A stretch of 64,000 nucleotides of DNA from Polyangiales bacterium (GTDB lineage Bacteria > Myxococcota_A > Polyangia > Polyangiales > Ga0077539), in NCBI GenBank assembly GCA_041389825.1, contig JAWKRC010000007.1, forward strand, positions 61,093 to 125,092, read 5' to 3'. Shown here one piece after another: positions 1 to 64,000 of this stretch (position 1 is the first letter of the stretch; every line of letters begins with the position of its first letter). The notes under the pieces are model-generated. The model was not told the origin of the DNA. It worked only from the letters and a program-made list of their open reading frames with translations, and ran no database searches. The position numbers and the translations under genes were made by a program.

Positions 1-1338
1 CACCGCCGACGTGTTCTCTCTCGCGGTGATGACCGTCGAGCTCCTCACCAACACGCCGCTCCCCACGCCCGACGGCCGCGAGACCTGGGCCACGCGCGCG
101 CGGCAGCCCGGCGTCGACCTCGTGGCCGCGCTCGTCGCGCTGCGCGGAGACGTCCCCCGGGCGGTGTGGGAGGTGCTCGGCCGCTCGCTGTCGTCGTCTC
201 CGCGGGCGCGGCCGCAGAGCGTGCAGCAGCTCCAGCGCGCCCTGCGCGAGGCGTGGCAGTCGAGCGGCGAGTGGGACCGTTCGAGCGCGAACGACCCCGA
301 CCCCCCGATGCCCTCGGCCGTCCCCCCGCCGCCGCGCCCCGCGATGCCCGCGGGCTCCGCCGCGAGCGCGATCTCGGGCTGGCGCTCCGCCGAGCGCGTG
401 GCCGAGCCCACCGCCGCGCCAGTGAAGCCCGCGGTGCAGTACGGCGCCACGATGCGCACGCCGCGCGGGATGATCCCGACCGAGCACGCGCCCATCGAGA
501 CCCCCGCGTCACCGAGGGGCACCACGCCCGACCCCACCGAGTACGTGAACCTCGGCGCGCGAGCCTCTGGAGCGAGGGGCCTCCCACCGCGCACGAGGGC
601 ACGCAGGCCCTCGACCTCTCCGTCGCGCAGGCCCTCTTCGGCGAGTCGCTCCCCGACGACGCGCCGGTGTCCGAGGCCCCCGAGGTGGGCACGCAGGTGA
701 TGTCTCGGCCCTTCGCGCCCGCGCCGCAGCCGCCCGCGCCGCTCACCGAGCCGCCCCGCGACGTGCGCGAAGAGACGCGGGCCATCGACCTCGACACCGC
801 CTTCGACAACCTCGAGGGATCGCCGAGCGCGCACGAGTGGCGCGGCTCCATCGCGGGCGAGAGCGACCCCTTCTCGTCTCCGTCGACGGGTCAGGGCTAC
901 ACGCCCCTCACCACGATGAGCCCGCAGCGTGGCCCCGCGCCGCCGCCGTCGTACGAGCCGCCCTCGTACGAGCCCCCTCCGCCGCCGTCCTTCGACCCGC
1001 CGTCGGCGCCGCGCGTGTCGGCGACGCCCTTCGCGCCCGGGCCTCCGATGGCCCCGCCTGGCTATCCGCCGCGGAACTCTCCCGCGCCCGCGCAGCCGCA
1101 GCCCCCGCCTCCGCAGCGGGGAGGCTTCCCCGGCGACGACCCCTTCGCGCCGATGAAGACCATGGCGATGCCCACGTGGCAGACGCCGCCGCTGTCGCAG
1201 CCGTCTCCGCAGCCGCGCGCGTCGACGCCCACCGCGCCGCCGACCGAACCGACGCCCCGCTGGATGATCTACGCGGGCCTCGCGCTCCTGCTCATCATCC
1301 TCGCCGCTGGAGGGTTCCTCTACCTACGGCTTCGTTGA
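1..1338 (+). CDS. Ser/Thr protein kinase, C-terminal part. It is 5'-truncated by the window edge. It contains kinase subdomains IX-XI, a Pro-rich linker and a C-terminal TM anchor. The frame breaks at about nt 560-575.
   Basis: DVFSLAVMTVELLT (subdomain IX) lies at the window start. A Pro-rich PxxP/PPSYEPPSYEPPPPP linker and a terminal hydrophobic helix (LALLLIILAAGGFLYL) precede the stop at 1336-1338. Coding signal moves from the 11..700 frame to the 166..1338 frame near 560-575. Confidence 0.6.
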   Translation, partial: HRRRVLSRGDDRRAPHQHAAPHARRPRDLGHARAAARRRPRGRARRAARRRPPGGVGGARPLAVVVSAGAAAERAAAPARPARGVAVERRVGPFERERPRPPDALGRPPAAAPRDARGLRRERDLGLALRRARGRAHRRASEARGAVRRHDAHAARDDPDRARAHRDPRVTEGHHARPHRVREPRRASLWSEGPPTAHEGTQALDLSVAQALFGESLPDDAPVSEAPEVGTQVMSRPFAPAPQPPAPLTEPPRDVREETRAIDLDTAFDNLEGSPSAHEWRGSIAGESDPFSSPSTGQGYTPLTTMSPQRGPAPPPSYEPPSYEPPPPPSFDPPSAPRVSATPFAPGPPMAPPGYPPRNSPAPAQPQPPPPQRGGFPGDDPFAPMKTMAMPTWQTPPLSQPSPQPRASTPTAPPTEPTPRWMIYAGLALLLIILAAGGFLYLRLR

Positions 1339-1371
1339 TTGTCGCGCGCGGTCGTGGTGCCATCGGGCGCC

Positions 1372-1773
1372 ATGCCCCCGGCCGCGCGACTCGGAGACAA
1401 CCACGTCTGCCCCAAGGTCGAGCCCGGCCCCGTGCCTCACGTGGGCGGGCCCATCCTCCCTGGCTGCGAACCCACGGTGCTCATCGGCAACAAGCCCGCG
1501 GCGCGCGTGGGCGACAAGGCCCAGTGCAACGCGCCGCCCGACACCATCAAGATGGGCGCGCCCTCGGTGCTCATCGGCAACCAGCAGGCCGCGCGCATCG
1601 GAGACCCCACCGCGCACGGCGGCGTGATCGTCGCGGGCGAGTCCACCGTGCTCATCGGGACGACCGCCCAGGCCGCGGTGCTCCGTGCGGCGGCCGCGTC
1701 GGGCGCGCCCTTCTGCGAGGAGTGCGAGCGGGCGCGGGCGCGCATGGCCAGCGAGAGGTCCGCCGCAACGTGA
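1372..1773 (+). CDS. PAAR-domain protein (T6SS spike-tip family). The alternative start is TTG 1339, immediately after the kinase stop.
   Basis: Three PAAR motifs are present (PAARLGD, PAARVGD, AARIGD), spaced by VLIGN segments and conserved Cys/His. The stop TGA 1771-1773 overlaps the next gene's GTG (GTGA). Confidence 0.8.
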   Translation: MPPAARLGDNHVCPKVEPGPVPHVGGPILPGCEPTVLIGNKPAARVGDKAQCNAPPDTIKMGAPSVLIGNQQAARIGDPTAHGGVIVAGESTVLIGTTAQAAVLRAAAASGAPFCEECERARARMASERSAAT

Positions 1774-2318
1774 GCGAGGGCGACCGCGCCGCCGCGGTGG
1801 TCGAGCGACTTCGCGCCGAGGGAGAGGGCCTCTACGCGGTGCTCGACGCCGCCCGCGACGACCACGTGCTCGCGGCCATCTCCCGCTCGGGGGAGCGCTT
1901 CCGATCGCTCTACGAGGGCTGGCAGGGCGACGGCCTCGCCGACGTGGCCCCGTACCTCGTCGAGCTCCCCTCGGGCAGCGCCTTCGTCGATCGGCTGGTG
2001 CGCGAGGGCTGGGGCGAGTCGTGGGGGATCTTCCTCGTGACGCCCGAGGATTTCTTCTCCGTGCGACGTCACCTCCGGCGCTTCCTCCGCGTGGTCGACC
2101 ACGACGGCAAGCGCTTGCTCTTCCGCTACTACGACCCGCGGGTGATGCGCGCGTGGCTGCCCACCTGCACGCCCGACGAGACCCGCGCCTTCTTCGGGAG
2201 CGCCTCGGCCTTCATCACCGAGGGCCGCCGCGGAGCGACCTTCTTGCGCTTCACGCCTGGGCCCGAGGGGGCCGAGGTCGAGACCTTCCCACTGCCTGAC
2301 GAGAGCCCCGAGCCATGA
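1770..2318 (+). CDS. DUF4123-family protein (T6SS effector adaptor/chaperone, Tap/Tec-like).
   Basis: Carries LYAVLDAARD...ADVAPYLVEL...WG.FLVT...HLRRFLRV...LLFRYYDPRVMRAWLP...FFG signatures. GTG 1770 overlaps the PAAR stop. The stop overlaps the next ATG (ATGA at 2315-2318). Confidence 0.75.
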   Translation: MSEGDRAAAVVERLRAEGEGLYAVLDAARDDHVLAAISRSGERFRSLYEGWQGDGLADVAPYLVELPSGSAFVDRLVREGWGESWGIFLVTPEDFFSVRRHLRRFLRVVDHDGKRLLFRYYDPRVMRAWLPTCTPDETRAFFGSASAFITEGRRGATFLRFTPGPEGAEVETFPLPDESPEP

Positions 2319-9513: not shown

Positions 9514-10296
9514 ATGGAAGCGCCCGCGCACGAGCTCGTTGGGGAGGGGCCCACGGTGGTCCTCCTTCACTCGTTCCCCCTCGACCGCGGGATGTGGACG
9601 CGGCAGCTCGGCGCGCTCTCGGCCGCGGGCTTCAGGGTCGTCGCGCCCGACCTCCCGGGCTTCGGCGCGACCCCCACGCCCACGGGAGACGCGCCCTCCC
9701 TCGACGCCTACGTCGCCTCGGTGGTCGCGCTCCTCGACGCGATCGACGCGCGACGTCCGCTCGTGCTCGGGCTCTCGCTCGGCGGCTACGTCGCCCTTCG
9801 CCTCGCGGCGCTCCACCCCGACCGCGTGGGGGCCCTCGTCCTCGCCGACACGCGCGCGGCGGCAGACAACCCCGAGGTGCGCGCGAGCCGCGTGGTGAAC
9901 CTCTCGCTGGTGCGCTCGAAGGGGGCGGGCGCGCTGATCCGCAAGATGCTCCCGATGGTGCTCTCGGGTTCGGCCCCCGAGTCGGTGCAGTCCGCGGTGA
10001 CCGCTCTCGGTGAGAAGCAGTCCGCCGAGGGGGTGTCGTACGCGCTCCTCGCGATGCGCGACCGCCACGACGGCACCGACGCGCTGCCCTCGATCAAGGC
10101 CCCGACGCTCTGCCTCGTGGGAGACGGCGACAAGGTCACGCCCCCCGACGAGATGCGCGCGATGGCCGACGCGATCCCCGGCGCGCGCTACGTCGAGCTC
10201 GCCGGGGCGGGGCACCTGTCGAACTTCGACGCGCCCGAGGGCTTCGACCGCGAGGTCGTTCGGTTCGCGAACGACCACCGCGCAGACTTCACCTGA
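9514..10296 (+). CDS. Alpha/beta hydrolase fold protein (3-oxoadipate enol-lactonase-like).
   Basis: HSFPLD ... GLSLGGYVAL nucleophile elbow (GxSxG). 260 aa. Confidence 0.85.
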   Translation: MEAPAHELVGEGPTVVLLHSFPLDRGMWTRQLGALSAAGFRVVAPDLPGFGATPTPTGDAPSLDAYVASVVALLDAIDARRPLVLGLSLGGYVALRLAALHPDRVGALVLADTRAAADNPEVRASRVVNLSLVRSKGAGALIRKMLPMVLSGSAPESVQSAVTALGEKQSAEGVSYALLAMRDRHDGTDALPSIKAPTLCLVGDGDKVTPPDEMRAMADAIPGARYVELAGAGHLSNFDAPEGFDREVVRFANDHRADFT

Positions 10297-11620
10297 TCGG
10301 GCGGGCGCGGTCGGCGATGAAGCGCTCGAGGGCCGCTCGCTCCTCGGACGTGATCCCGTAGAGCGCGCACACCCGCGCCTCCACCGCGGCGACGCGCTCC
10401 GGCGTCGGGCCGTCGATGGTGAGGGACCGCACCATCTCCGTGACGCCGTCGCGGAGGGAGTCGTCGGGAGGCGCGGGCAGCGCGCGGAGGTGCGCGACCT
10501 TCACCTGCGGGAAGGCGGCCTGACGTCCGTCGCGGCGAGAGGCGAGGTGCAGCGCGCGGAGGGGAGCGCTGTTGAGGCAGGCCACGGCGAGCGCGGGGTC
10601 GGCCCCGTCGAGGGCGAAGCCCGCGAGGAGCGAGTTGCGGAAGGGCGACGGGTCACGGTGGAGCGCCGCGATGGGGAAGGCCGCCGTCTGCCGCACCACG
10701 AAGGCCACGGCGCGCCACGCCTCGGGAGGGCGCATCCGCGCGCGCGCGGCGCGCAGCGCGACGGGGTCGGGGTCGAGCCACCGACGCGCGGGGCCGACGC
10801 GGTACGGGGTCACGTCCTTTCCCTCGCGTAAGGGGACGGTGTGGCGCTCCGAGGGCGCGTCGGCGATCAGCGCGCGCACCGCGGGGCTGGTCTGCACGCC
10901 CACGTCGCTGAAGGTCTCAGGCGCGAAGCGAGGGAGGGCCGCGAGGCGCGCGAGGCACCGCGGGGGTTCGACCACCACGGCCTCGACGCCCGCGCGTCGG
11001 CGCTCGCGCAGCGTCCACGGTCGCGGGTCGGGGGGCGCGTCGCGGCGCGCCCCGAGCATGGCGAAGCAGGGCTGCACCACACCCTCGAAGACGTCGGGGC
11101 CGAACTCCTCCATGGGCTCGGCCAGCGCGACCCGGGCGCTCACCGCGCGACGCACGGGCGCGTAGCCGTCGAGGTCGGCCATCGCCGACGGGAGCAGCAA
11201 GGCCACCACGCCGCCCGGCGTGAGGAGCGCGGTGGCGCGGTCGGCGAAGGCCCCGTGCAGCGTGGGGTATCCGCCGAAGCCCTCGTAGCGCGCGCGCAGC
11301 GCTTCGCGGCGCGCGAGGGAGATGGGGCGCGAGGCGCGACCCGCGTAGGCGACCCAGGGGGGGTTGCCCACCACGAGGTCGGCCGGGTCGAGCGCGAGGT
11401 CGAGGGCGTCGCCCACCGTCACCGCAGAGAGCGCCGCGGGCGGGGGCTCCCGCGCGCCCGAGGCGAGCCAGAGCGAGAGGCGCGCGGCGTGGGCGGCCTC
11501 GGGGTCGAGGTCGACGCCGCGGAGGCGCGCGAGGGCATCGTTCGTAGACCCAACGATCTCCGCGAGGGCGCGCATCGCCGCGACGAGGAAGACGCCCGCG
11601 CCGCAGGCCGGGTCGAGCAC
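10289..11620 (-). CDS. N6-adenine DNA methyltransferase (gamma class, Eco57I/TaqI-like). The true N-terminus extends upstream to about 11850 but has no canonical start codon.
   Basis: Motif I is VLDPACGAGVFL. Motif IV is GNPPW. Motif X (GRWFTPRTIAAHLV) lies upstream of the first GTG (11620), in an open frame with high GC3 that runs to a stop at about 11933 without ATG/GTG/TTG. Confidence 0.7.
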   Translation of the reverse strand: MLDPACGAGVFLVAAMRALAEIVGSTNDALARLRGVDLDPEAAHAARLSLWLASGAREPPPAALSAVTVGDALDLALDPADLVVGNPPWVAYAGRASRPISLARREALRARYEGFGGYPTLHGAFADRATALLTPGGVVALLLPSAMADLDGYAPVRRAVSARVALAEPMEEFGPDVFEGVVQPCFAMLGARRDAPPDPRPWTLRERRRAGVEAVVVEPPRCLARLAALPRFAPETFSDVGVQTSPAVRALIADAPSERHTVPLREGKDVTPYRVGPARRWLDPDPVALRAARARMRPPEAWRAVAFVVRQTAAFPIAALHRDPSPFRNSLLAGFALDGADPALAVACLNSAPLRALHLASRRDGRQAAFPQVKVAHLRALPAPPDDSLRDGVTEMVRSLTIDGPTPERVAAVEARVCALYGITSEERAALERFIADRARPIR

Positions 11621-11971
11621 GGTGGGGGCAGCGCCGCGCCAGCGTGAGAGGGCCTCGCGGACGAGGTGCGCCGCGATCGTTCGCGGGGTGAACCATCGGC
11701 CGGCGTCCTCGCGCGCGCCGTCGCGGAGGCGCTCGAAGGCCGGGCCGAGGGCGTCGGCGTCGAGGGCGGGGACGTCGAGCGTGAGCGCGGGGTCGACCGA
11801 GGGAAGGTTGTCGCCGAACCATCGTCGGGCGTCGGCGGCGGTGGGTCGCTCGTGGCCGCGGCGCGCGCGGCGGAGAGGGTGAGCGAGAGCCGGAGCGCCT
11901 CGGTCGGAGGGACGCCCTCGGCGACGAGCCGGTCACGCGCGCGGGGTCGAGCGGGTGCGGGGCGCGGCGCT

Positions 11972-12277
11972 TCACGGGGCGCGGCGCTGCTTGCGCTGGA
12001 GCGAGGCGATGCGGGCGTCGATGGCGTCGAGGCGCGTGGTGCGAAAGGCCCGGTCGAGCAGGCGAGAGCCGATGAAGAGGAAGGCCACCGCGAAGAGGAA
12101 GCCCCACTGCCGCGGCAGGCCGACGGCTTCTTGCAGGAGCACGCCGAGGCCGAGGCCCAGGCCGAAGGCGGCGAGGGTCACGGGGATGAGCACGTTGGTG
12201 CGGTGGGCCTCCCACCAGGTGATGCGCTTGAAGAGGCGCTCGCGCTCGTCGCGCAGGCGGGAGAGTTCGTCGTCCAT
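11972..12277 (-). CDS. Small membrane protein (N-terminal coiled segment plus two TM helices).
   Basis: 101 aa. Coding-like codon usage. Hydrophobic segments are VLIPVTLAAFGLGLGLGVLL and FLFAVAFLFIG. Confidence 0.55.
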   Translation of the reverse strand: MDDELSRLRDERERLFKRITWWEAHRTNVLIPVTLAAFGLGLGLGVLLQEAVGLPRQWGFLFAVAFLFIGSRLLDRAFRTTRLDAIDARIASLQRKQRRAP

Positions 12278-14477: not shown

Positions 14478-15365
14478 ATGACGAGGCGGGTGCTGGTCGC
14501 GGGCGCGTCGGGCGCGCTCGGTCGACGGGTGACCCTCGCGGCGCGCGCCGCGGGGTGGGCGGTGCGGGCCCTGGTGCGTGACCCGGCGAGGCTGCGCGAC
14601 GCCGCCGACGCGGTGGACGAGGTGCGCCAGGGAGACGCGCTGAGGCCCGACACCCTCGCGGGGCTCTGCGACGGGGTCGACGCGGTGTTCTCCTGCGTGG
14701 GCGCGTCGGTGTCGGGCGAGCTCGGCGCGGGGCGGGCGACCTACCGCGACGTGGACATCCCCGCGAACGCGAACCTCATCGCCGAGGCGAAGCGCGCGGG
14801 GGTCGGCCGCTTCGTCTACACCGCCGTCTGGAACCGCGACCCGGCCGTCGCCGCGACCGCGTACGTCTCCGCGCACGACGCCGTGGTCGACGCGTTGCGC
14901 GCGAGCGGGCTGTCGTACTCCGCGATCCGCCCGGTGGGCTTCTTCTCGATCTACGACCAGATCCTCGCGATGATCGCCGCGGGCAAGCCCGTGCCCCTCG
15001 TCGGAGACGGCTCGCCCCGCACCAACCCCGTGAGCGACGACGACCTGGGCGAGCTCGCCGTGCGGCTCCTCGACGGCGGCGACCCGGAGGTCGACGCGGG
15101 CGGGCCCGAGACCCTCACCCGCGCGGAGATCCTCGACCGCTGCTTCGGCGCGCTCGACAGACCCTCGAAGCCCCTCAAGATGCCCGCCTGGGCGATGCGC
15201 GCGTCGGCGGTGGCCCTGTGGCCCATCAGCCCGCGCATGGCCGACTTCACCCGCTTCGTCGCCGAGGTCTACACCCGCGACGTGATCGCGCCCTCCGTCG
15301 GAGAGCGCGGACTCGACGACCACCTCGCGGCGGCGGCCGCGCGGATCAAGAGCTCACGCGGGTAG
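14478..15365 (+). CDS. NAD(P)-binding NmrA/SDR-family protein.
   Basis: Carries VLVAGASGALGRRV (GxxGxxG Rossmann motif). 295 aa. Confidence 0.8.
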   Translation: MTRRVLVAGASGALGRRVTLAARAAGWAVRALVRDPARLRDAADAVDEVRQGDALRPDTLAGLCDGVDAVFSCVGASVSGELGAGRATYRDVDIPANANLIAEAKRAGVGRFVYTAVWNRDPAVAATAYVSAHDAVVDALRASGLSYSAIRPVGFFSIYDQILAMIAAGKPVPLVGDGSPRTNPVSDDDLGELAVRLLDGGDPEVDAGGPETLTRAEILDRCFGALDRPSKPLKMPAWAMRASAVALWPISPRMADFTRFVAEVYTRDVIAPSVGERGLDDHLAAAAARIKSSRG

Positions 15366-15484
15366 CACGCAGCGGGTGAGCCGCTCGGCGTTCACGACGC
15401 CCTGCGCGGCCATGTACGCCTCGGCGCTCGCGACCGCCGCGCGACCCGCGGCGCCGCCCTCGAGGCGCCCCGCCCTCGCCCGCG

Positions 15485-18400
15485 TCACCGCCGCGAAGAG
15501 GGCCATCTCGGCCGCGTCGAAGCCGCCGTCGCGCGGCGCAGCGACGCGAGACCGGCCTCGCTCCTCCCCTGCTGGAGCGCGACCCCCGCGCGCAGGAGCT
15601 CGGCGAGCGGCGCGGCCCACGCGAGGGTGCTCTCGTCGATGACCTTCGCGTCGTCGAGCGCGCGCGCGTGGAGCGACGGCGCGTCGAGCCCCGACGCGCG
15701 GGAGGCCACCGCAGCGAGCGCCGCGCGGCCACGGAGCTGGTGGAGCTCGACCCGCGCGCACTCCAGCCGGAGGAGCTGGGCCGACCCGAGGCCCTCCCAC
15801 TCGGCGTCGACGGCGCGGAGCGCGCGGGCGCCCTCTCCGTCGTAGAGCTCGGCCTGCGTGGCGGCGACGAGGTGCTGGTAGCGCTGGAGGTTCCACGCGC
15901 CGGGGGGCCAGGTGGCCTTCACCCGCTCGGCGAGGGCGCGCCACTCGTCGGCGCGGTCGAGGGCGAGCCAGCGCAGCGCCTGCTCGCCGAGCACGTAGCC
16001 GCCCGCGGCGAAGAGGTCTTCGCGGTCTTCAGCCTCGCGCAGCGCGCGCGTGAGGCGCGACGAGAGCTCGGTGAGCCGCCCCATGAGCGCGAGCGACGAG
16101 AGGGCGTAGATCTCCGATGTGGCGACCTCCCACGCGACGCCGCGGCACGCGCTGCGCCACAGGTCCGCGGCTGCGACGCACTCGTCGTGGGCCGAGCGCC
16201 AGCGCGACTCGAACCACGCCGTCGTCCCCCGCGCCATGCGCGCCCACGCGCGGTCGTAGACCGAGCCCGTGCGCGACGCCACGCCGTCGACCACGTCGAG
16301 GATCTTTCGCGCGCGACCGCGGAAGAACGCTCCGCCCACCGAGGCCTCGGAGGTGGCCTCGTACCCGAGGGCGCGCACCGCGCGGGAGGGGTCGCCGATC
16401 TCAAGGGTCGCGGCGAGGTGCTGCACGCCGAGCGCGTCGGCGAAGGCAGGCTGCACCATCGAGTAGCTCACGACCCCCGTCCACATCGCGTCGAGCCGTC
16501 GCAGCGCTCGCCCGACCCGCCACCCCCGCGAGCGCCGCGCCGCGCGGCGTCGAGGGGAGCGACACCCCCGCCGCGTCGAGCACCTCGCGCATCACCCGCA
16601 TCCCCTCGACGTAGCGGCCCGAGCACACGAAGCGCTCCGCCGCGCGACGTCGCAGGTCCATCACCATCGGGTCCGCGGGGCGGGTCTGCGCGAGCGCGGC
16701 GGCGGCCTCCATGAACGCCTGGGCGGCCTCTCCGCCCCTGCCCGCGGAGGTGAGCGCCTCGGCGAGCCGCGTGAGCACCTCGTCGCGGCGGACCGACTTG
16801 TGCGGCGCGCGCAGCGCCACGCGGTAGAGCGAGGCCGCGTGGTCGAAGGCTAGGGCCTCGGCCGCCCTCTCGGCGGCGGGCAGCGCGTAGCGGGCCGCGC
16901 GGTCGTCGTCGCCCGCGCCCACGAGGTGCAGCACCAGCGCGTCGAGGTCGTCGCTCTTCTGGTCGAGCAGGGCGTCGGCGAGACGTCGGTGCGCGTCGCG
17001 GCGCACGGCCTCTCCGCCCGCGGCGAGGATCGCCTCGCGCACGCGGTCGTGCCGGGTCTCGACCGCGGGCTGACCGTCGACGGGCGACAGGCGCAGGAGC
17101 CCCGCGCCCACGAGCCGGGTGACCTCGCGACGTCCCCACTCGCCCATGCTCGCCGCGCGCAGGAGCGTGCGCCGCTCGACGGCCGCGCCCGCGACGGCGG
17201 CGAGCGTGAGGAGCCGCTGCGCGTCGGGGTCGAGGGCGTCGATGCGCCGGCGCACCACGTCGCCGAGCCGAGGGGCGGTCGCGCCGCCGGACTCTTGAAG
17301 GTCTTGCGCGAGCTGGAGCACGAAGAAGGGCGAGCCGCCCGACTCGCGCGCGACGAGCTCGGCGAGCCTGCGGGCCTCGTCGGTGTCAGCGCCGAGGGCC
17401 CTCGCCGCGAGCGCCTCGGCCTCGCGCGGAGGGAGCTGCCCCACCCGCAGCTCGCGCCGGCCCGGGAGCGCGTCGAGGGCCTTGAGGAGGGCGGAGTCGT
17501 CGCGGCGCTCGCTCTGGTAGCTCACCACGAGGAGCAGCGGCGGGGCGTCGTCGCGCGCGAAGAGCTCCTTCGCGAGCGCGGCGCTGTCGGCGTCGGCCCA
17601 CTGGGCGTCGTCGATCCACACCACGAGCGGGGCCGCGCGGGCGACGGAGGCGAGCACGGCGCGCAGGGCCTCGAAGCCGACCTGACGCAGCGCGCGCGAG
17701 TCGACCTCGTCGGGGCGCGGCGGCACCGCCGTCGCGGGCAGCGCGCGAGAGAGCACGGGGAACACCCGGAGCAGCGCCTGCCGGTCGGGCTCGGCGAGGG
17801 CCTCGATGGCCGAGGGCTCGCGCACGAGATCGGCTGAGCGCGTCGACCACGCCGTCGAAGGCCCGGTACGCGACGGACTCCTGCGGCAGGCAGCGGCCGC
17901 GGAGCACCAGCGAGGGCGGCGCGCGCTCGACGCTGGTGATGAAGCGGCGCACGAGCTCGGTCTTGCCCGAGCCCGACACGCCCTCGACGCACACGAGCGT
18001 GAAGGCGCCCTCGCGCGCCGCGGGTAGGCCGCGTCGAGGGCCGCGAGCTCGTCGGCGCGGCCCACGAAGGGGGCTCGGCCGAGGGTCTTCGGGGAGACGC
18101 GTCGGCCGGGGGCGCGTCACGCAGACGGCGCAGCACCTCGCGCGTCGGGTCGGCGCGCGGGGTCGGGGTGCAGGAGGGCGCGTACCAGCTCGTCGTAGCG
18201 GCGCGGGAGCGCGGGGTGCATCTCGGCGGGCGAGGCGAAGCGCGCGGCGCGCTGGAGCGCGAGCACCTCGTCGCGCGTGCCGGTGAAGGGGAGGGCGCCC
18301 GTGAGGGCCTCGTAGAGGACGACGCCGAGGGCGTACCAGTCCGACGCGGGGGTGAGCGCGAGGCCCTGGGCCTGCTCGGGGGACATGTACACGCCCGTGC

Positions 18401-37746: not shown

Positions 37747-37762
37747 GAGCCCGCGCCCCTCG

Positions 37763-45955: not shown

Positions 45956-46438
45956 ATGCGAGCCGCCGTCGTCGTCGCCGCCCTCTTCGCCCTTCGCGCC
46001 TCGTGCTCCGAGCGCGCGCGCCCCGTCACGCAGGCCGAGACCACCACAGGCCGCCGCGCCGAGGTCGAGGTGGTGATCCCCACCGACGCCGGCGCCGACG
46101 CGCGGGTCGAGCCCCGCGAGGTCGGCGCGCGGCACGTCCTGGTGATGTACCAGGGCTCGATGCGCGCCCCCGCGAGCGTCACCCGCAGCCGCGACGAGGC
46201 CCGCGCCCGCGCCGAGGAGGTGCTCCGCCGCGCCCGCGCCGGAGAGGACTTCGCCGGCCTCGCGCGAGAGTTCTCCGACGAGCCCAACGCGAGCGAGACG
46301 GGCGGCAACCTCGGTCGCTTTCGCCACGGCCAGATGGTGCCCGCCTTCGACGAGGCCGTGTTCGCGCTCGAGCCCGGTCAGATCTCCGACATCGTAGAGA
46401 CGGATTTCGGCTTCCACGTCATCCTACGCACGGAGTGA
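45956..46438 (+). CDS. Secreted PpiC-type peptidyl-prolyl isomerase (parvulin).
   Basis: [46 protein letters not shown]. Confidence 0.85.
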
Positions 46439-47390
46439 TCTCGCGGGCGAAGACGCGGAGCGCGGCGGCGGTGGCCCTCTCGCTCCTCCTCGCGGGCGGC
46501 GCGGCCGGCGCGCAGTCCGCGCGGGAGACCTACGCCCGCGGTCTGGAGTCGTTCCGCAGCCAGCGCTACGCCGAGGCCCTCCTCGCGTTCGAGTCGTCGT
46601 ACCGCGCCGAGCCTCGCCCCGAGGTGCTCTACAACATCGGCCTCGTGCAGCGCGCGCTGGGCCGCTACCTCGACGCGATCGACTCGTGGGAGCGCTTCCT
46701 CGCGGGCGACACGTCGAGCGTCGGCGCGGCGGTCACGCAGCAAGCGCGCGACGGCGTGACGGCGATGCGGTCGATGGTGGCGACGGTGACGCTCCGCGCG
46801 CAGCCCGAGTGCGAGGAGGTGCTCGTCGACGGCCGCCCCGCGCGGGTCGAGTCGAGCGCGATCCGCGTCGACCCAGGTCAGCGTGTGCTGGAGTGCCGCG
46901 CCGCGGGCCACGCGCCCTCTCGGCAGGACCTCCGCCTCGGACTGGGTGAGCGCCGCGAGGTCGTCCTCGCCCTGCGCCCGCTCACCGCCGCGTTGACCAC
47001 CGACCCGCGGAGGGTCGCCGACCCGCAGGGAGTGCCGCCGACCCGCGCTCCCGCGAGGGCGGGTCTGCCGTGGTGGACGTGGGGCGGCGTGGGCCTGACC
47101 GTCCTCGCGACGGGCGCCGCCGTCGGCCTCGGCCTCGCGGCGCAGTCGTCGGAGTCGACTACCTCTCGCGCTGCGTCGACCAACGCCCGCCCGAGGCGGG
47201 GTGCGCCGCGCTCCAGGGAGAGCGCCAGTCCGAGCTCGACGGCATGGCGCTCGGCGTGAATCTCTTGTGGGGCGCGGCGGCGGTCGGCGCCGCCATCGCG
47301 ATCACGGGCGTGGTGGTGGGCGTCACGCGTCGCCCCGCGTCGCGGGTCGCGATCTCACCCGGCGGGCGCGGGCTGGAGGTCCGGTGGTGA
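46435..47390 (+). CDS. Exported TPR-like / PEGA-domain protein with a C-terminal TM segment. The frame breaks near 47140.
   Basis: GTG overlapping the previous stop. A signal peptide is present. [20 protein letters not shown] (TPR-like). A PEGA-like beta segment is present. A TM helix is present. The C-terminus ...[13 protein letters not shown] continues in a neighbouring frame. Confidence 0.5.
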
Positions 47391-54037: not shown

Positions 54038-54493
54038 ATGCAGACCTTCCTGACCATCATCCATGTGTTCGTGTGCTTCTTCCTCGTGGGCGTCGTGCTG
54101 CTCCAGTCGGGCCGCTCGGGCGGCATGGGGGTGCTCTCGGGGGCCGCGACGCAGACCGTCTTCGGAGGCCGCGGCGCCGGGGGCTTCCTCGCGAAGGCCA
54201 CCGCCGTCTGCGCGACGCTCTTCATGCTGACCAGCGCCTCGCTCGCGTACATCAGCACCTCGGGCCGCGACTCCCTCGCGCGCTCGTCGCGCCGCGCGAC
54301 CCCCGCGGCCACGACGACCACGCCCTCGTCGACGACGCCCTCGACCGCGCCCTCGACGCCGACGCCCGCCGCCCCCGCCGCGGCCCCCACGGCTCCCGCC
54401 GCGGGCGACGCCGCCGCTGCGCCGGCCGCCCCCGCTGCCCCCGCCGAGGGTCAGGCCCCCGCGCCGGCCGCCCCCGCGCCGGCCGCGCCCTGA
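54038..54493 (+). CDS. secG: Preprotein translocase subunit SecG with a Pro/Ala-rich tail.
   Basis: FLTIIHVFVCFFLVGVVLLQSG is the conserved SecG N-terminus. It follows tpiA, as is common. Confidence 0.9.
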   Translation: MQTFLTIIHVFVCFFLVGVVLLQSGRSGGMGVLSGAATQTVFGGRGAGGFLAKATAVCATLFMLTSASLAYISTSGRDSLARSSRRATPAATTTTPSSTTPSTAPSTPTPAAPAAAPTAPAAGDAAAAPAAPAAPAEGQAPAPAAPAPAAP

Positions 54494-54496
54494 CCG

Positions 54497-55805
54497 CGCG
54501 ACGCGCGCTCCTCCTCACGCTCCCCGCGCTCGCGCTCCTCGCGGGCGCCGCTCTCCTCCGCGCCCGAGGCTACGCCGGGCTCTCCAACGACGACGCCCGC
54601 GCTCTCATCGCGTGGACTTCTCTCGCCACCCCACCCTCGACCCGACGCGATCGAGCTGGCTCCCGCTCCACGCGATGCCCTCGGCGGCGCGCTGCGCGTG
54701 GCGCCCGACTCGTCCGTGGTGCCCGTGCTCCCTTCCCTCGCGGCGGGATCGCGACGCTCGCTCTGCCCGCGCGCGCGCGCACCACCGCGCTCGGCGCTCG
54801 CGGCGCTGGTCCCCCTCGCGCTGTGGCGCTGGACGCTCCTGCCCTCCGCGGCGCCCGGCGCTGCCTGAGATGCCCTGCGCCGCGCTGCTCGTCGGCCGCC
54901 GCGCTCTGCCTCGACGCTCCGACGGTGCGCGCCCGCGCGCTGCTCGGCGCGGGCTCACGCTCGCGTGCGGTTTCCGCTACGAGGCGTGGTTCGCCGCCGC
55001 CGGGACGCTCCTCGCGCTCCTCCGACGTCCTCGACGCGCGCTACTCGCCGCGCCGATCGCGTCGCTCGTGCCCGCGGCGTGGCTCGCGATCAACCGCGCC
55101 CGCTCTGGAGACGCGCTCGACTTCGTCCATCGCGTCGAGCGCTTTCGCCGCGCCGAGGGCCTCGCGCCCCTCGCGGAGCGCCTCGGCGCCTTCGCGGTCG
55201 AGCTCCTCCCGCTCGCGCCCTTGATCATCCTCGCCGCGAACAGCCGCGACGCCTGGAAGCGCCACGAGCGATCCCTCGCCGGCGCGTTGGCCGTACTCGC
55301 GGGCGTGGCCTTCGGTGAGCTCCGCGGCGGAGGCGCGTCGCACCACGCGGGCCGTTCGCTCCTCTTCGTGGGCGTGCTCCTCGCGCCGGTCGCGGTGGAG
55401 GGGGCCGCGCTCTTCGTCGCGCGCGGACATCGCGCCGTGGTCGTGGCGCTCGCGGCCGTGGCGCTCGCGGCGGGGCTCCCTCGCGCGGGAGACCTGATCG
55501 GCGTAGAGCCCTCGGCGGTGCGCGCCGGCGACGCCGTGCGCGCGGCGGTGAACCGACGCGAGGCGTGTCGCTGGACGGTGATCGGCGCGCGGGGAGATTT
55601 CCTCTGGGTGATGCTCCGCGCGGGCAGGCTCGACCGCGAGCTGCGCGTCTCGACCTTCGGCAGCGTCGCGTCCCGCGCGGCGCGGCGGCGGGCGCTCGTC
55701 GCGTCGTGCGTGGCCGCGGTGGAAGATCGCTGGGAGGACGAGGCGCGCGCCGCGGGGATGCGACGCGCGCTGTCAGACGGAGGCTGGTCGCTCTACGAGC
55801 GCTGA
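54497..55805 (+). CDS. Polytopic membrane protein (glycosyltransferase-like?). The frame is disrupted twice (about 54600 and about 54870) and no canonical start is found.
   Basis: Coding signal passes through three frames. The last about 300 aa (…LTLACGFRYEAWFAAAGTLL… to SLYER*) are clean and TM-rich. Confidence 0.4.
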
Positions 55806-56632: not shown

Positions 56633-59600
56633 TCAGCCCCGGCGCGCGCCGGGCCGGAGCGACGGGTTGACCTTACGCAGCGCTGCCTCGCAGTCCTCCA
56701 CGAAGCGCCTCGCCTCGGTCGCGCCGGCCGTGGTGAGCGCCTCGCGCAGGAGCTTTCGCGAGCGGTCGGCGTCGCCCACCTCCATCGCGAGGAGGCCCGC
56801 GAGGTAGCGCGCCTCGATCCCGTCGACCACGAAGCCCTCGGCGTCGAAGAGCGTCGTCGCCGCGTCGAGCCGCACCTCCGCCGACGCGCGCTCCGCCCCG
56901 TCGCGCATCCCCTCGAGGAAGGCCAGGTACGCGTCGGCCCTCGACGCGAGCCGCGCGAAGCCCCGCTGGTCGGCGAGCTCCTTCGCCTCGGTGAAGGCCG
57001 CGTAGGCGCGCGCCGAGTCTCCCGAGCGCCAGCACGCCTCGCCGAGCACCGCGCAGCAGGCCGCGAGGCCGAGCGACCGATCGACCTCACGCGCGAGGTC
57101 CACCGCCACCTGCGCCGCGTCGACGGCCTCGAGCACCGCGTTCACGCCGAGGAGCACCTCGGCCCTCGTGCGCGCGAGCTCCACCCGAAGCCCCGGCTCC
57201 GCCCACGCCTCGGCCTCCAGCGACGAGAACACCGCCACCGCAGCGCTCGCCCCCGCCTCGTCGCCGCCCGCCGCGCGGCACCGCGCCAGCGCCGCCAGCG
57301 CCCGCGCGCGCTCCCTCGGGAGCCCGCTCGCCTCGGCCAGCCGCGCCGCCTCCTCCAGGTGCCGCATCGCCTTGCGGAACTCACCCCGCTCGGCGTGCAC
57401 CGCGCCCAGCGTCGCGACCGCGCCCGCGCGCACCGCGTCGTCGCCCACGGCCTCGCCCATCGCGAGCGCGCGCTCCAGCGTGCGCACCGCGTCGACCATC
57501 TGGTGCCGCCGCGCGTACAGCCGCCCCTGCAAGAGCACCAGCTTCGCGACGGCGTGGCGATCCCCCGCGCTCTCGGCGAGGGCGACGCCGACGAACACCC
57601 GCTCCAGCGCGCGGTCGGTGTCGCGCGCCGCGAGGGCCACCTCGGCGAGGGCGATGTACAGCGGCAGCACCTCGGAGGGGCCGCGCCCCGCGCTCTCGGC
57701 GAGGTCCACCGCGCGCTCCAGCGTCGACACCGAGCCGTCGGGCGCGTGGTCGTTCAACTGCCGACGCGCGGCGCGCATCAGGAAGTGCAGCGTCTGGTCG
57801 AGCTCCCCCGCGGCCTCGTGGTGGTGCGCGAGGCGCTCGGCGAACTCGTCGAGCCGGTCGGGGAGCAGCCGCTCGGTCACCTCGGCCACCGTCGCGTGCA
57901 GCGCGGCGCGCGCCTCGCGCTCGATGCCGTCGTAGAGCACCCTCGCAACACGAGCTCGCTCGCGAAGCGGTACTCCTTGGGCTCCCGGGTGCTCCAGCAC
58001 GCCCGCGGCGACGAGCGCGGCGAAGGCGTTGTCGGCCGCGTCGGGCGCATCCGCGCGACCTCGATGAGCTGCTCGCGGTAGAAGCGCTTAGGCCGATCAC
58101 CGCCGCCACCTGCAACACCTTGCGCTGCGCCGAGGGCAGCCGCGCCACGCGGCTCGCGACCATCCCGCGGAGCGTGTCGGGCAGCGCGCCCTCCAGGGTC
58201 GACGGGTTGTAGAAGACGCCCTCGTCGCCCACCACCACCGCGCGCAAATCGAGGAGCGCCTTGAGGTACTCCTCCAGCGCGAAGGGGTTGCCGCGGGTCT
58301 TCTCCCAGAGGTCGTCGACGAGGTCGCCCGGGAGCACGCCCGTGCCGAGCTGCTGCGCGACGAGCTGCCAGGTCTCGTCTTCGGTGAGGGGCTCGAGCTC
58401 GGCGCGCGTGGCCGACGCGTGCGCGTGCCACGGGAGGCGCCGGCCGCGACGCGCGGCGGTCACCACCACGAGGCGAGACTTCGCCGCGCGCTCGACGAGC
58501 TCGGCCAGGAGCGTCGCCGAGAGGTCGTCCATGTGCTCGGCGGAGTCCCACGCGAGCACGGTGATGCGGTCTTCGGCGAGGCGCGTCGCGATCTTCTGCA
58601 TCGCGCTCCGCAGGGGGCGCGACGCCGAGTCGATCGACTCGATGCTCGCGCTCACCACGCCGAGCACCACGCCCACGGCGAGCATCTCCTCGGGGGTGAG
58701 GCCGAGCTCGCGCACGCGCCGCGCCTTCTCGCGCACCACCGCCTCGGGGTCGACCTCCTCGATCCCGAGGAGCTCGCGCAGCATCGCCTGCATCGCCGCC
58801 AGCGGAATGTCCCTCTCGTGCGAGAGGCAGGTCGCGACGTGCCACGTGACCTTGTGGTTCTGCCGCCGCAGCCGGTAGTGCACCTCCTCGAGGAAGCGGG
58901 TCTTCCCCACGCCCGCCTCGCCCACCACCTCGACCACCTGCAGCCCTTGCGTCGCCGCGCGCGCGAGCACCTCTCCGAAGAGCTTGAAGGGCGCCTGTCG
59001 CCCGACCACCCGCCTCCGCACCTCGGCGCGCGCCTCGATGACCCTCGCGCCTCCGTCAGAGAGCGCCTCGGTCTCGAAGCCCTCGGCCACCGCGCCCGCC
59101 AGCGCGGGAGAGGTCAGCACCCTGTCGCGCGCCGTCAGCGCGAGCGCGCGCGCGGCGCCGATCGACTCCACCAGGGCGTCGTCGTCGACGGGCTGACCGT
59201 CGGCGTCGAGGCGCACCCGCGCCGTCACGAGCCCGATGCCGAGCGACGCGCCCGGCGCGGCCCGCGAGGCGATCTGCTGGAGCGTGAGCGCGACGCGCGT
59301 GGCGTGCGTGACCTCGCGCCCGTCGGGCGAGCGCACCCCGAAGGCGAGCACCACGGCGCCCTCCCGTCGGTCGAGCACGGTGGCCGCGCGTCGGTCGGCG
59401 CTGGTCACCATCGCGTCGAGGCTCGTCTGCACCAGCGACGCAGACGCGCCCGTGAGCTGCGCCGCGAGCATCACCACCGGGCGCCGCTCGTCGAGCGGGC
59501 GCATCGACGACCCGGCCTTGGCGGGCGGAGGCTCGTCCTCGGCGACCTCCTCGATCTCGACCTCCTCGTCGATCTCTTCGATCTCGGGGCCGAGGGCCTC

Positions 59601-60596
59601 GCCGCCGAAGTCGTCGAAGGCGGCCTGGATCCCCCGCACGTCGACGACGGAGCTGGGCCCGGCCTCGCGCACGTCCTTCAGCCACTCGGCGAGGTCGTTG
59701 GGCCCGACGCGCGTGCCGAGGGTGTAGAGGAAGGCCGTGAGCTCCTCGTAGAGCTTCGCCGCGGTGGAGGGCCGCTTCGCGACGTCGAGGCTCATCGTCG
59801 CGTCGAGGAGCGCGACGATCTCGTCGGGCGCGTCGGGGCGGAACTGCTTGAGCGGCGGGTGTCGGCCCTCGAGCACGCGCGCGAGGACGTCCTGCGGACG
59901 CGGCGGGGTCGCCCCCGTGGGCGCGAAGGGGTTCTGCCCGGCGAGGGCCTCGAAGAGCGTGACGCCGAGGGCGTACACGTCGGCGCGCGCGTCGACGGCC
60001 TCGCCCCGCGCCTGCTCGGGCGACATGTACCCGTACTTGCCGCGGATGGTGCCCTGGGCCTCGATGGTGTTGCGGGCCTTGGCGATGCCGAAGTCCGTGA
60101 CCTTCACCTCGCCCTCGGACGAGAGCAGCACGTTCTGCGGAGAGATGTCGCGGTGCACGACCCCGAGCGACTGCCCGTGCGCGTCGCGTCGCCGGTGCGC
60201 GTAGTCGAGCGCCCGGGCCACCTCGCAGGCGATGTACACCGCGATCTCGACGGGAACGTCGCGGCCCTCGCGCCGGCAGTCGCGCAGCACCTGCGCCATG
60301 TCGGCGCCGCGCACGTACTCCATCGCGATGAAGTAGGTGTCCTCCTCGCGGCCGAGGTCGAACACCTGCACGATGTTCGCGTGCGAGAGCGCGACGCTGA
60401 GCCGCGCCTCGTGCAGGAACATGTCGACGAACTGCTGGTTCTGCGCGAGCCCCGGCAGGATGCGCTTGAGCACCACCTGCTTCTCGAAGCCCTCGACGCC
60501 GTAGCTCTTGGCCTTGAAGACCTCGGCCATGCCGCCCCGCGCGATCAGTTCCAGCAACTGATACCGACCGAAGAGCAGGGGAGACTCAGACGACAC
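56633..60596 (-). CDS. Ser/Thr kinase–STAND ATPase–TPR regulator (PknK-like), about 1320 aa. Two frame breaks within about 50 nt near 58040-58090.
   Basis: Kinase motifs: IARGGMAEVFKA, HRDISPQNV, DFG, MSPE. P-loop GEAGVGKTR. Walker B VLAWDSAEHMDD. ...AAVIG then RPKRFYREQLIEVARMR in a second frame, then the helical/TPR body (56633..58000 frame). GTG start 60596 or 60617. Confidence 0.7.
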
Positions 60597-62946: not shown

Positions 62947-63083
62947 AGCCCGATGGCGCATCTCACGTCACGACGCCCTCACGAAACGAACACATTTCTT
63001 CGGAAGGGATCGATGTGCGTGGCACAATCCCTGCGACCGTCGGAATGCTTGGAGCGCCCGCGTGGGGCGCCTGGAGGTTCCCG

Positions 63084-63503
63084 ATGAAGCTCCTACTTAT
63101 CGAAGACGACGACAACGAGCGCTTCACGCTCGCGCGGGTCCTCGAGCACGCGGGCTACGAAGTCGTCGCTCTCTCGCGCGCCGACGAGGCGCTCGGGCTC
63201 ATCGACGACGGCGGCTTTCACGCGGTGGTGTCCGACGTGATGATGCCCGGCACCGACGGGCTCTCCCTCGCCCGCGCGATCGCCGCGGCCCACCCCGACG
63301 TTCCAATCCTGCTGATGAGCGCCTTTCACCTTTGCAAGCGGCAGCTCGACCGGCTCGACGTGGGCAAGCTCTTCTTCTTCGACAAGCCCCTCGACATCGA
63401 CCGGCTGCTCACCGTGCTGGCCTCGCCCAACACCCCGTCGCGCGGCTCGGCCCCGTCGCTCCCCGACGCCCTCCCCTGCCTGCAGCGCCCCGCCTCAGCC
63501 TGA
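63084..63503 (+). CDS. Stand-alone response-regulator receiver domain protein (CheY-like).
   Basis: KLLLIEDD .. D (VVSDVMMPGTDG) .. ILLMSA receiver motifs. 139 aa. Confidence 0.85.
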   Translation: MKLLLIEDDDNERFTLARVLEHAGYEVVALSRADEALGLIDDGGFHAVVSDVMMPGTDGLSLARAIAAAHPDVPILLMSAFHLCKRQLDRLDVGKLFFFDKPLDIDRLLTVLASPNTPSRGSAPSLPDALPCLQRPASA

Positions 63504-63986
63504 TCGCCCGAAGAGCTTTCGCACGCGACCCGCGAGGGCTCGCATCGCCGACGGGTGCCGCTCGCTGAGCACCCGCCCGTCGCGCGCGCTCACCGCGACG
63601 TGCCCCTCGACCGTGCCCTCGGCGCCCGCGGCCTGGCCCTCGTAGCGATACCGCCGGAGCCACAGCGGGTAGTGCACCAGCAGCGCGCTCCGCACCCGCA
63701 CCTCGAAGCTCGACACCAGCGCCCCGCTCGGCACCACCCTCCGCCGCAGCCGGTCGCCCACCTCGGCCTCCACCGCGTCGCGAGGGACGTCGGGGTCGAG
63801 CACCTCACCGTCGAGGGTCGCGTCGCGCCGCGGGGTGAGGTCTCCGATGGCCAGCGTGACCTTCGCCGAGGGGTCGAAGGCCAGCACGCGCCGCGCGGGG
63901 AGCACCATCACCGCGTCGTTGAAGCGCGTGCCTCCGGTGGGGAGCACCGAGCGCACGCGGCCCTTCTGGTCCGTCACCGCGCGCAC
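63495..63986 (-). CDS. Hypothetical protein. The ORF start is close to the window edge.
   Basis: 163-aa ORF. Moderate coding-like composition. Confidence 0.35.
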   Translation of the reverse strand: MRAVTDQKGRVRSVLPTGGTRFNDAVMVLPARRVLAFDPSAKVTLAIGDLTPRRDATLDGEVLDPDVPRDAVEAEVGDRLRRRVVPSGALVSSFEVRVRSALLVHYPLWLRRYRYEGQAAGAEGTVEGHVAVSARDGRVLSERHPSAMRALAGRVRKLFGRSG

Positions 63987-64000
63987 GCCGAGGTGGTAGC

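Follow-up and report, generated by a model that had tools for sequence, protein, structure and literature searches.

The Locus and Its Interrupted Genes

The DNA considered here, referred to as the window, is a stretch of 64,000 nucleotides within a 307,118-nt contig of the NCBI MAG "Polyangiales bacterium" (locus tags R3A52_05xxx). In these 64 kb, a codon-usage frame map together with comparison to relatives revealed 11 genes broken by ~47 small frame-breaking indels. The frame map served as first detection, and every site listed by a first-pass annotation was then checked separately. That annotation had claimed at least 20 frameshifts, which proved to be real but undercounted: at or near each listed site the frame map features a same-strand frame switch, and a verifiable break lies no more than ~60 nt away. 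The broken genes are the following:

1..1338, + strand: Ser/Thr kinase gene that enters from outside the window, so that only its 3′ part is included; it encodes a Pro-rich linker and a C-terminal TM helix
5847..7537, - strand: permease-like membrane protein of ~562 aa with a His-rich loop
10289..11975, - strand: N6-adenine DNA methylase
15354..18924, - strand: STK1, Ser/Thr kinase of ~1,190 aa with an AAA_16 ATPase domain and a helical repeat region
25100..26549, - strand: coiled-coil protein of ~480 aa
26711..30713, + strand: Cys-rich repeat lipoprotein of ~1,330 aa with Stig1-type repeats
33379..34100, + strand: VTT-domain (DedA-like) membrane protein, 239-240 aa in relatives
37745..38910, + strand: SAM-dependent methyltransferase, 388 aa in L090 (93.5% identity in the alignment)
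46435..47390, + strand: TPR protein with TM helices
54490..55805, + strand: membrane protein of unknown family (the 54.5-kb gene), at least 381 aa in relatives, with an inferred 5′ limit at ~54490
56633..60596, - strand: STK3, Ser/Thr kinase of ~1,310 aa with AAA_16 and TPR domains

The genes described as intact were confirmed as such. No net frameshift relative to relatives was found in htpG, gap, pgk, tpiA and the RNB, MVP and GH25 genes, secG features a full-length SecG Pfam match and no unbalanced indel within its relative-covered parts, and one kinase has an unbroken Pkinase domain. Altogether, comparison with relatives revealed no net frameshift over ~22 kb of intact coding sequence. The breaks had been assigned to long accessory genes, which is correct insofar as the affected genes are mostly accessory; the restriction to long genes does not hold, since the 240-aa VTT protein and the 388-aa methyltransferase are broken as well. 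Three further frame switches are ordinary gene boundaries: at ~4311 a scytovirin-domain gene gives way to an AAA_33/PNK gene, at ~19335 the next gene begins with MVMLGC, and at ~35988 the next gene opens with the lipoprotein signal peptide MNPPSTARWLLSALGC.

Kinase Genes

STK1 carries ten deletion events, at 18620, 18609, 18139, 18091, 18083, 18072, 18024, 17830, 16500-16511 and 15527. The 18609 and 18620 events (-1 each) account for the break previously placed at 18600, five deletions within 18024-18139 for that at 18125, the -2 event at 17830 for that at 17850 and the net -56 event at 16500-16511 for that at 16440, while the -1 event at 15527 had been overlooked. At the 56-nt event, which is located at an inverted repeat, ~19 conserved residues are lost; it looks more like a rearrangement than a consensus slip and is atypical in this respect. 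Both the Pkinase and the AAA_16 domain are divided between frames (Pfam). The stitched protein matches single proteins of 1,207-1,239 aa (52-55% identity, 97-98% query coverage), the break positions are concordant across frameshift-aware alignments to 8 homologs, and an orthologue of 1,194 aa is whole in L081 at 93% nucleotide identity. In the PGAP annotation, pieces of the gene appear as at least three proteins, MEZ4405876 (333 aa, "hypothetical"), MEZ4405877 (554 aa, "AAA family ATPase") and MEZ4405878 (159 aa, "serine/threonine-protein kinase"). A metagenome scan for the exact DNA pattern across the 17830 deletion gave no match.

In STK3, frameshift-aware alignment to the closest homolog P0172 (59% identity therein) placed four breaks within 140 nt, at 58090, 58061, 57979 and 57950, of which 58061 and 58090 answer to the sites listed before at 58050 and 58085. 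Pkinase and AAA_16 share one frame and the TPR domains lie in another, homologs are contiguous (1,300-1,318 aa), and the PGAP protein of 1,071 aa ends in a 236-aa out-of-frame tail. The kinase at the window edge features one frame break at ~555-570, where GC3 phase and coding score switch (GC3 0.96-1.0 in the first frame before, 0.92-1.0 in the second after) and a start codon is not nearby; the gene lies outside the coverage of the relatives and the evidence is purely intrinsic.

Methylase, Methyltransferase and Membrane Protein Genes

For the N6-methylase, a missing start had been noted at 11620-11935. The true start is a GTG at 11975, followed by frameshifts of +2 at 11947 and -1 at 11857 relative to three relatives and by an in-frame deletion pair (-1 at 11801, -2 at 11810). 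These differences are identical against L081, L091 and L092, and the gene is whole in L081 and L092-L094 (562-570 aa). The N6_Mtase domain starts upstream of the first in-frame start codon, and the gene lacks any PGAP protein: accession MEZ4405870 is followed directly by 871, with one locus tag omitted. In the SAM-dependent methyltransferase gene, the break reported at 37763-37770 is a -1 deletion at 37750, in codon 3, which puts the native start out of frame with the domains located downstream in the other frame.

The VTT gene, with a previously noted site at 33955, lost one nucleotide at each of 33960, 33991 and 34027, and the three gaps are identical against L087 (92.7%) and L090 (94.3%). 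Its product has a Pfam match to VTT_dom; the translation is nonsense beyond ~residue 195, and the ORF continues spuriously to 35181. What is left of a Uma2 gene, probably a genuine remnant, occupies 34243-34526.

The permease-like gene features two breaks, at ~6537 and ~6213 (earlier sites 6535 and 6235), at which the membrane-protein reading resumes in the next frame, whereas continuing in the old one yields only nonsense rich in R, G and P. The stitched product is plausible as a membrane protein. Its pieces differ in their weak matches, to ZIP and to ArsP_1, and the PGAP fragment is MEZ4405867 (476 aa). Both breaks are outside the relatives' coverage; L097 extends 96 nt into the gene and ends short of 6213. 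The TPR gene was judged from intrinsic evidence only. It is broken once, at ~47150 (47140 before), its last ~75 codons lying in another frame that ends at 47390; in the new frame, GC3 rises to 0.92-0.96 over 47160-47384 and the coding score turns positive. The following RCC1 lipoprotein gene begins at 47384, and PGAP shows three proteins at this locus vs. the two genes expected.

The 54.5-kb gene is broken by at least 10 indels crowded into an island at 54616-54954 and is clean from 55021 to the stop. Breaks at 54616 and 54860, plus at least eight in 54679-54954, correspond to two sites of the first pass, 54600 and 54870. Alignment with the homologs P0168 (85%) and P0169 (53%) needed 3-5 frameshifts; against L096 DNA, the island is followed by an in-frame 3-nt gap at 55020 and then by ~1,400 gap-free nt. 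PGAP holds only a 311-aa fragment, R3A52_05510.

Coiled-Coil and Cys-Rich Repeat Genes

Within the earlier listed range of 25100-26549, breaks of the coiled-coil gene at 25262 (+1), 25369 (-1) and 25562 (-2) coincide exactly with the frame-map predictions and were confirmed against L098 (95.8% nucleotide identity), which encodes the last 224 aa in one frame. Closer to the 5′ end, a compensating pair at ~26391 and ~26442 is probable on the basis of composition alone. A metagenome scan with the protein query gave no match.

The Cys-rich lipoprotein gene, for which a site at 26726 and five or more in 26959-28344 had been listed, has ~8 breaks, at ~26726, 27201, 27288, 27606, 27654, 27789, 27894 and 28410, and is intact from 28411. 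Its signal peptide is split at ~26726 into MAFQR and KSLWLACAVALAAAVGC, and Stig1 matches occur in five ORF pieces across three frames. The stitched protein retains a ~40-aa repeat along the whole length, and alignment of the intact repeats to the broken part put breaks at 27653, 27783 and 27895.

Comparison With Relatives and Selection

Six of the 11 broken genes (STK1, N6-methylase, VTT, methyltransferase, the C-terminus of the coiled-coil protein and the 54.5-kb gene) are intact in relatives of 88-96% nucleotide identity, whose assemblies are independent and consist of short contigs. The relatives compared (L081, L087, L090, L091, L092-L094, L096, and L098) are not the same strain, and the gene content of the neighborhood differs between them. 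In frameshift-aware alignments, changes of 1-2 nt restored the frames of STK1, STK3, the N6-methylase, the coiled-coil gene and the 54.5-kb gene. Two other sequences cover stretches apart from the breaks: L082, a nearly identical independent contig (99.5%), spans 53171-54384, where no break sites occur, and the one close relative from a genome scan with HtpG, a 4.3-kb contig, covers none of them.

Purifying selection is equally visible in broken genes (dN/dS 0.10-0.29) and intact neighbors (0.03-0.45), with dN/dS being insensitive to very recent inactivation. The individual values are 0.10 for STK1 (window vs. relative; Sd 152, Nd 45), 0.12 for the VTT gene, 0.13 for the coiled-coil gene, and 0.18 for both the N6-methylase and the methyltransferase; the 54.5-kb gene, measured over its clean part, gave 0.29. 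Despite its 10 indels, STK1, the most damaged gene, is identical at 1,125 of 1,168 aligned residues, and 12 amino-acid changes are window-derived vs. 8 relative-derived (p = 0.5). Every fragment of the broken genes has a GC3 > 0.9. Moreover, in-frame stops are absent from 6,942 frame-corrected codons of the broken genes, in which a random substitution would produce a stop in ~2.4% of cases.

Distribution and Sequence Context of the Indels

The events are strongly clustered. Of the 46 inter-event gaps, 26 measure at most 150 nt, whereas random placement yields 4.9 such gaps on average and never more than 14 (5,000 trials), and tight islands comprise 5 events in 115 nt, at least 10 in 340 nt, 4 in 140 nt, and 3 in 67 nt. 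Deletions predominate in the broken genes of the window (28 vs. 5 insertions), whereas the remaining small gaps, which are intergenic or self-cancelling in linkers, are roughly balanced in direction.

A location of breaks in homopolymers had been suggested and applies to some of them, while runs of 4 or more account for only ~4 of the ~30 DNA-resolved events as contractions, and homopolymers were thus rejected as the explanation for most events. Among the 1-nt deletions in broken genes, ~5 of 19 are situated in runs of 3 or more and two in runs of 4; one G6-to-G4 and one (CG)4-to-(CG)3 contraction were found in addition. Many events sit in G/A-rich tracts, and most 1-nt deletions lie outside any run, which does not correspond to the classic homopolymer pattern of nanopore or 454 data. 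GC content as a cause was discarded, given a weak enrichment (0.77 at the sites vs. 0.74 overall) that is contradicted by the VTT sites (0.66-0.68). Low-quality sequence around the STK1 deletions was ruled out likewise, as the mismatch rate is not raised beside them (0.050 vs. 0.057 elsewhere in the gene).

Origin of the Frame Breaks

Judged from the sequence, the frame breaks most likely represent uncorrected consensus errors in the MAG assembly, i.e., a technical artifact, and the organism's own genes are probably intact. This reading is favored because selection is unrelaxed, a branch excess in STK1 and in-frame stops are absent, and a deletion bias coincides with tight islands. The first-pass annotation had offered it next to a lineage that sheds signaling and repeat genes. 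Such a lineage, having recently inactivated 11 genes that now decay under the deletional bias typical of bacteria, is unlikely, although the excess of deletions is also known from real pseudogenes, the broken genes are mostly accessory in a neighborhood of varying gene content, the 56-nt deletion at an inverted repeat resembles a real template-switch mutation and the Uma2 remnant is likely genuine. Decay fits poorly with dN/dS values as low as those of intact genes, with STK1 lacking any branch acceleration and with a GC3 above 0.9 kept in every fragment. Typical decay involves several substitutions per indel, so that several stops would be expected; ~47 indels are nonetheless accompanied by no nonsense mutation in 6,942 codons. 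Neither are multiple events tens of bases apart predicted by neutral decay, and no relative shares any of the DNA-resolved indels, whereas disruptions shared by orthologs had been named as the sign of true pseudogenes. Mycobacterium leprae and recent host-restricted symbionts have pseudogene-rich genomes in reductive evolution. The window resembles such genomes in its many frameshifted genes, the predominance of deletions and the accessory and signaling genes affected; it differs in unrelaxed selection, in broken genes without nonsense mutations, IS elements or large deletions, in events spaced 30-350 nt apart and in relatives that are intact at 92-96% identity. Real recent micro-deletions, caused by a localized deletion-biased process or by strong selection to inactivate signaling, repeat and membrane genes, appear quite improbable; a wild Polyangiales population in which repeated events within tens of bases outpace substitutions is hardly to be expected.

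Erroneous stitching of what would in fact be independent short genes, adjacent by chance, had been considered as well and is barely credible. PGAP indeed called several pieces as separate proteins, and long spurious ORFs are common in DNA of 74% GC. Yet the Pkinase and AAA_16 domains are split between pieces with profile coordinates continuing across, contiguous homologs cover the stitched STK1 to 97-98% and likewise STK3, in close relatives a single ORF encodes each gene, and pieces lack start codons where their coding potential begins. The chance that the cell restores the frame by programmed ribosomal frameshifting or by slippage during transcription is similarly negligible: a few sites coincide with runs of G or C, which is nothing specific, while up to 10 breaks per gene occur in both directions, a common slippery motif is not visible at the break sites, and the sites are not conserved, the extra bases being present in relatives.

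With assembly error as the preferred reading, the errors would mainly be missing bases in short low-quality islands. They probably originate either from locally failed polishing of a long-read or hybrid assembly or from a consensus across co-assembled strains. In strain consensus collapse during metagenome assembly, errors would favor variable or repetitive stretches and conserved genes would stay clean. This resembles the window, where errors lie in linkers, Cys-rich repeats and coiled coils and conserved genes are clean; as a point of difference, divergence from the relative is no higher beside the STK1 deletions than elsewhere in the gene. Long-read assemblies and MAGs retain frameshift-causing indels even at "high-quality" MAG grade, and the IDEEL protein-length test screens for residual indel errors (Sereika et al., 2022, PMC9262707). 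The window shares with these assemblies the 1-2 nt indels, mostly deletions, the truncated or split genes with full-length orthologues elsewhere and the possibility of still rating as a good MAG; it deviates by mostly non-homopolymer events, dense islands in place of a spread over all genes, spared housekeeping genes and one 56-nt rearrangement.

Consequences for Annotation

About a quarter of the window's genes are publicly mis-annotated, being split, truncated, extended by out-of-frame tails or dropped. The expectation that uncorrected indel errors lead automated annotation to split or miss genes was thus borne out for PGAP, with the evidence favoring the error reading. Findings in the window that depend on where ORFs begin and end, on "orphan" short genes or overlapping ORFs, or on absent starts and unusual domain arrangements need to be reinterpreted with frame-corrected models, and any count of pseudogenes in this MAG, or any claim that its genome is reduced, would be unreliable. 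The biological interest is low, and the result is a practical warning for anyone using the window; if the breaks were real, the clustered multi-event pattern would constitute an unusual mutational phenomenon. Fragments also distort protein databases. In 90% protein clustering, the 333-aa fragment from the window represents the intact 1,194-aa STK1 orthologue, which is consequently hidden from homology search.

Frame Breaks in the Window

At a G+C content of 74%, the window contains long spurious open reading frames (ORFs) in every frame, which makes ORF lists alone uninformative. Accordingly, a codon-usage frame map was used (a seven-state Viterbi model trained on the window itself), and its frame switches were then checked against outside evidence where this was obtainable. 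The first-pass annotation had reported a high density of reading-frame breaks. A same-strand frame switch was found at or near every coordinate in its list, and the count grew to about 47 events across 11 genes. The broken genes treated here are as follows.

Broken genes, with their length in relatives and dN/dS (window versus relative) where obtained
10289..11975 (-), N6-methylase; whole in relatives, 562-570 aa; dN/dS 0.18
15354..18924 (-), Ser/Thr kinase with AAA_16 domain (STK1); whole in relatives, 1,194 aa; dN/dS 0.10 (152 synonymous, 45 non-synonymous differences)
25100..26549 (-), coiled-coil gene; last 224 aa in one frame in relatives; dN/dS 0.13
26711..30713 (+), Stig1-repeat lipoprotein
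33379..34100 (+), VTT protein; whole in relatives, 239-240 aa; dN/dS 0.12
37745..38910 (+), SAM-methyltransferase; whole in relatives, 388 aa; dN/dS 0.18
46435..47390 (+), TPR gene
54490..55805 (+), membrane protein (54.5-kb gene); whole in relatives, at least 381 aa; dN/dS 0.29 (clean part)
56633..60596 (-), second large kinase (STK3)

In STK1, two domains are interrupted: Pkinase at about 18600, where one piece covers profile positions 2-89 and the following piece 102-255, and AAA_16 at about 17830. The stitched protein of 1,143 aa matches single proteins of 1,207-1,239 aa over 97-98% of its length with 52-55% identity. A purpose-written frameshift-aware aligner placed the STK1 breaks alike with eight different homologues and revealed a fifth one near 15550, which the first-pass list had lacked. 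In STK3, the TPR domains are read in a different frame from Pkinase and AAA_16; alignment to its closest contiguous homologue (61% identity in the search, 59% in the frameshift-aware alignment) requires four frameshifts in 140 nt, at 58090, 58061, 57979, and 57950. The Cys-rich Stig1-type repeats are scattered over five ORF pieces in three frames (26.6-28.7 kb). Once stitched, the gene retains its repeat of about 40 residues throughout, and the breaks are recovered when the intact repeats further downstream are aligned to the broken part.

At about 560, 6213, 6537, 26726, and 47150, the evidence is solely intrinsic: a GC3 of 0.92-1.0 and protein-like translation move to another frame, and the abandoned frame degenerates into Arg/Gly/Pro-rich text. 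The frame map is trusted at these sites since it had placed three coiled-coil indels within 1-2 bases before any relative was available.

Lesions Resolved Against Close Relatives

Relatives were found via cluster mates of the window's proteins. Their contigs are syntenic, share 88-96% nucleotide identity with the window, and come from independent assemblies (Logan assemblies of SRR11928969, SRR13347294, DRR438483, and DRR438486; ENA assemblies; GenBank MAG OH_CBlB_99). Six of the broken genes are whole there, the coiled-coil gene being seen over its last 224 aa only. Base-level alignment resolved ten events in STK1, every one a deletion. The N6-methylase shows +2 at 11947 and -1 at 11857, shortly past its GTG start at 11975, and the SAM-methyltransferase a 1-nt deletion in codon 3, while the coiled-coil gene carries +1, -1, and -2 exactly at the switch positions of the frame map. 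The VTT gene has 1-nt deletions at 33960, 33991, and 34027 versus two relatives. In the 54.5-kb gene, at least ten indels fall within 54616-54954, followed at 55020 by a 3-nt gap that keeps the frame and, beyond it, by about 1,400 gap-free nucleotides. An independent, near-identical contig (L082, SRR28338165; 99.5%) spans no break site.

Around 22 kb of intact coding sequence (htpG, NTF2, BNR, hydrolase, FUR, SDR, MVP, GH25, acyltransferase, PPIase, RNB, gap, pgk, tpiA, and most of secG) showed no net frameshift versus relatives, in agreement with the earlier listing of htpG, gap, pgk, tpiA, MVP, RNB, GH25, and secG as intact, for secG over most of its length.

Pattern of the Indels

The broken genes hold 28 deletions versus five insertions, whereas gains and losses are about equal among the remaining small gaps versus relatives, the expectation for unpolarised natural differences. 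The events are clustered, with 26 of 46 successive gaps measuring 150 nt or less versus 4.9 expected (maximum 14 in 5,000 random placements). In STK1, sequence flanking the deletions has diverged no further than other parts of the gene, which indicates cleanly missing bases. The location of breaks in homopolymers, as noted earlier, holds in part, and the classic homopolymer signature is weak: only about four events contract runs of 4 or more, and most 1-nt deletions lie outside any run. Many events occur in G/A-rich tracts, and local GC at the break sites is barely above the window level. Local coverage dips, failed short-read polishing or a cross-strain consensus are possible causes of the indel islands.

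At 16500-16511 in STK1, a complex loss of 56 nt removed about 19 residues that all homologues have. The site features an inverted repeat in the relative contig L081 (CGCAGCGC...GCGCTGCG), and the 12 nt remaining in the window resemble the reverse complement of the L081 loop, which was apparently inverted; the event could be a genuine template-switch mutation, even if the 1-2 nt breaks are errors, or else locally misassembled sequence. In the FUR gene (-), a -1/+1 pair at 7861-7866, separated by 5 nt and seen versus both L081 and L092, turns ELSE into EALE, a change of two residues within an unaltered frame. Either a real difference or two errors that compensate each other could explain it.

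Consensus Error or Gene Decay

Intact relatives alone are not decisive, because gene loss in the window lineage could postdate the divergence. Such a genuine recent inactivation, suggested earlier as a lineage shedding genes, is nevertheless unlikely. The dN/dS values of the broken genes (0.10-0.29) lie within the range of their intact neighbours (0.03-0.45; n = 13, those with enough differences to score). When the amino acid differences of STK1 were polarised with ten outgroup homologues, 12 private changes fell on the window branch versus eight on that of the relative (p = 0.5), with 1,125 of 1,168 aligned residues identical between the two; many more private replacements would be expected in a gene that had drifted for the time needed to accumulate ten independent indels. 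Moreover, not one in-frame stop occurs in the 6,942 codons of the frame-corrected broken genes, where 2.4% of random substitutions would create one. In real gene decay, substitutions are several times commoner than indels. The presence of about 47 indels without a nonsense mutation thus points to a process that yields indels only.

Taken together, selection, branch rates, the lack of nonsense mutations, and the indel pattern fit residual consensus error, and the breaks are most likely errors of the assembly or its consensus, as the first of the earlier readings had proposed. This kind of error is documented for long-read assemblies and MAGs, where a 'high quality' grade is compatible with numerous frameshift errors (PMC9262707). 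Wrongly stitched gene models, with the pieces not belonging together, are extremely improbable in view of the contiguous homologues and relatives, and programmed recoding is just as far-fetched.

Effect on Public Annotation

Ten ATG-initiated ORFs of the window exactly match proteins of the NCBI MAG 'Polyangiales bacterium', annotated by PGAP on a 307,118-nt contig (locus tags R3A52_05xxx, proteins MEZ4405861 to MEZ4405914). The prediction that automated annotation splits or misses the broken genes was borne out by separate pieces, an out-of-frame tail, and a dropped gene. STK1 is represented by three entries:

MEZ4405876, 333 aa, 'hypothetical'
MEZ4405877, 554 aa, 'AAA family ATPase'
MEZ4405878, 159 aa, 'serine/threonine-protein kinase'

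Fragments of 476 aa (permease) and 311 aa (54.5-kb gene) are also filed. STK3 is given as 1,071 aa with the final 236 residues out of frame, and the N6-methylase is without a protein, one locus tag being skipped. The 333-aa fragment is the representative of a 90% protein cluster that also contains the intact 1,194-aa STK1 orthologue (L081 5449-9033; pieces in the window at 15485-16486 and 18117-18596), which hid the orthologue from the homology search. Assembly errors thereby distort the protein database. Biologically the breaks are of little interest, but they are an important caveat for every other feature in the window.

Variable Gene Content and Further Observations

Two genes at 12321-14435, whose products are a 219-aa lipoprotein and a protein of 446 aa bearing a haem-type CxxCH motif, are missing from L081 and L091, where 12320 directly adjoins 14436; this is a strain-specific insertion or deletion. 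Likewise, the TPR gene and an RCC1-repeat lipoprotein (46439-48941) are missing from the relative contigs L083 and L085, in which the PPIase gene is directly followed by the RNB ribonuclease gene. The stretch 34100-44080 is a variable island, with XhoI and Eco57I-type restriction-modification genes in L087 and a Uma2 gene in L090. Two Uma2 fragments are left in the window at 34243-34526, with about 294 nt gone between them, adjoining a lower-GC stretch that lacks coding potential (34405-35361). Unlike the breaks of 1-2 nt, they may be a genuine gene remnant. The 93-nt tRNA-His predicted by ARAGORN at 38007-38099 (-) falls within the coding sequence of the methyltransferase, and Rfam at gathering threshold yielded no tRNA for the entire window; the prediction is almost certainly spurious.

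The gene at 30773-33229 (-) is intact and encodes an 818-aa protein homologous to the eukaryotic major vault protein, with Vault_3 and MVP_shoulder domains; its dN/dS of 0.03 versus a relative is the lowest in the window. The closest relatives (L081, L090, and L098) stem from SRR11928969, a membrane bioreactor fed with urine and enriched in comammox Nitrospira (PMC9723585). Based on this origin, engineered nitrifying systems seem to be a habitat of the lineage.
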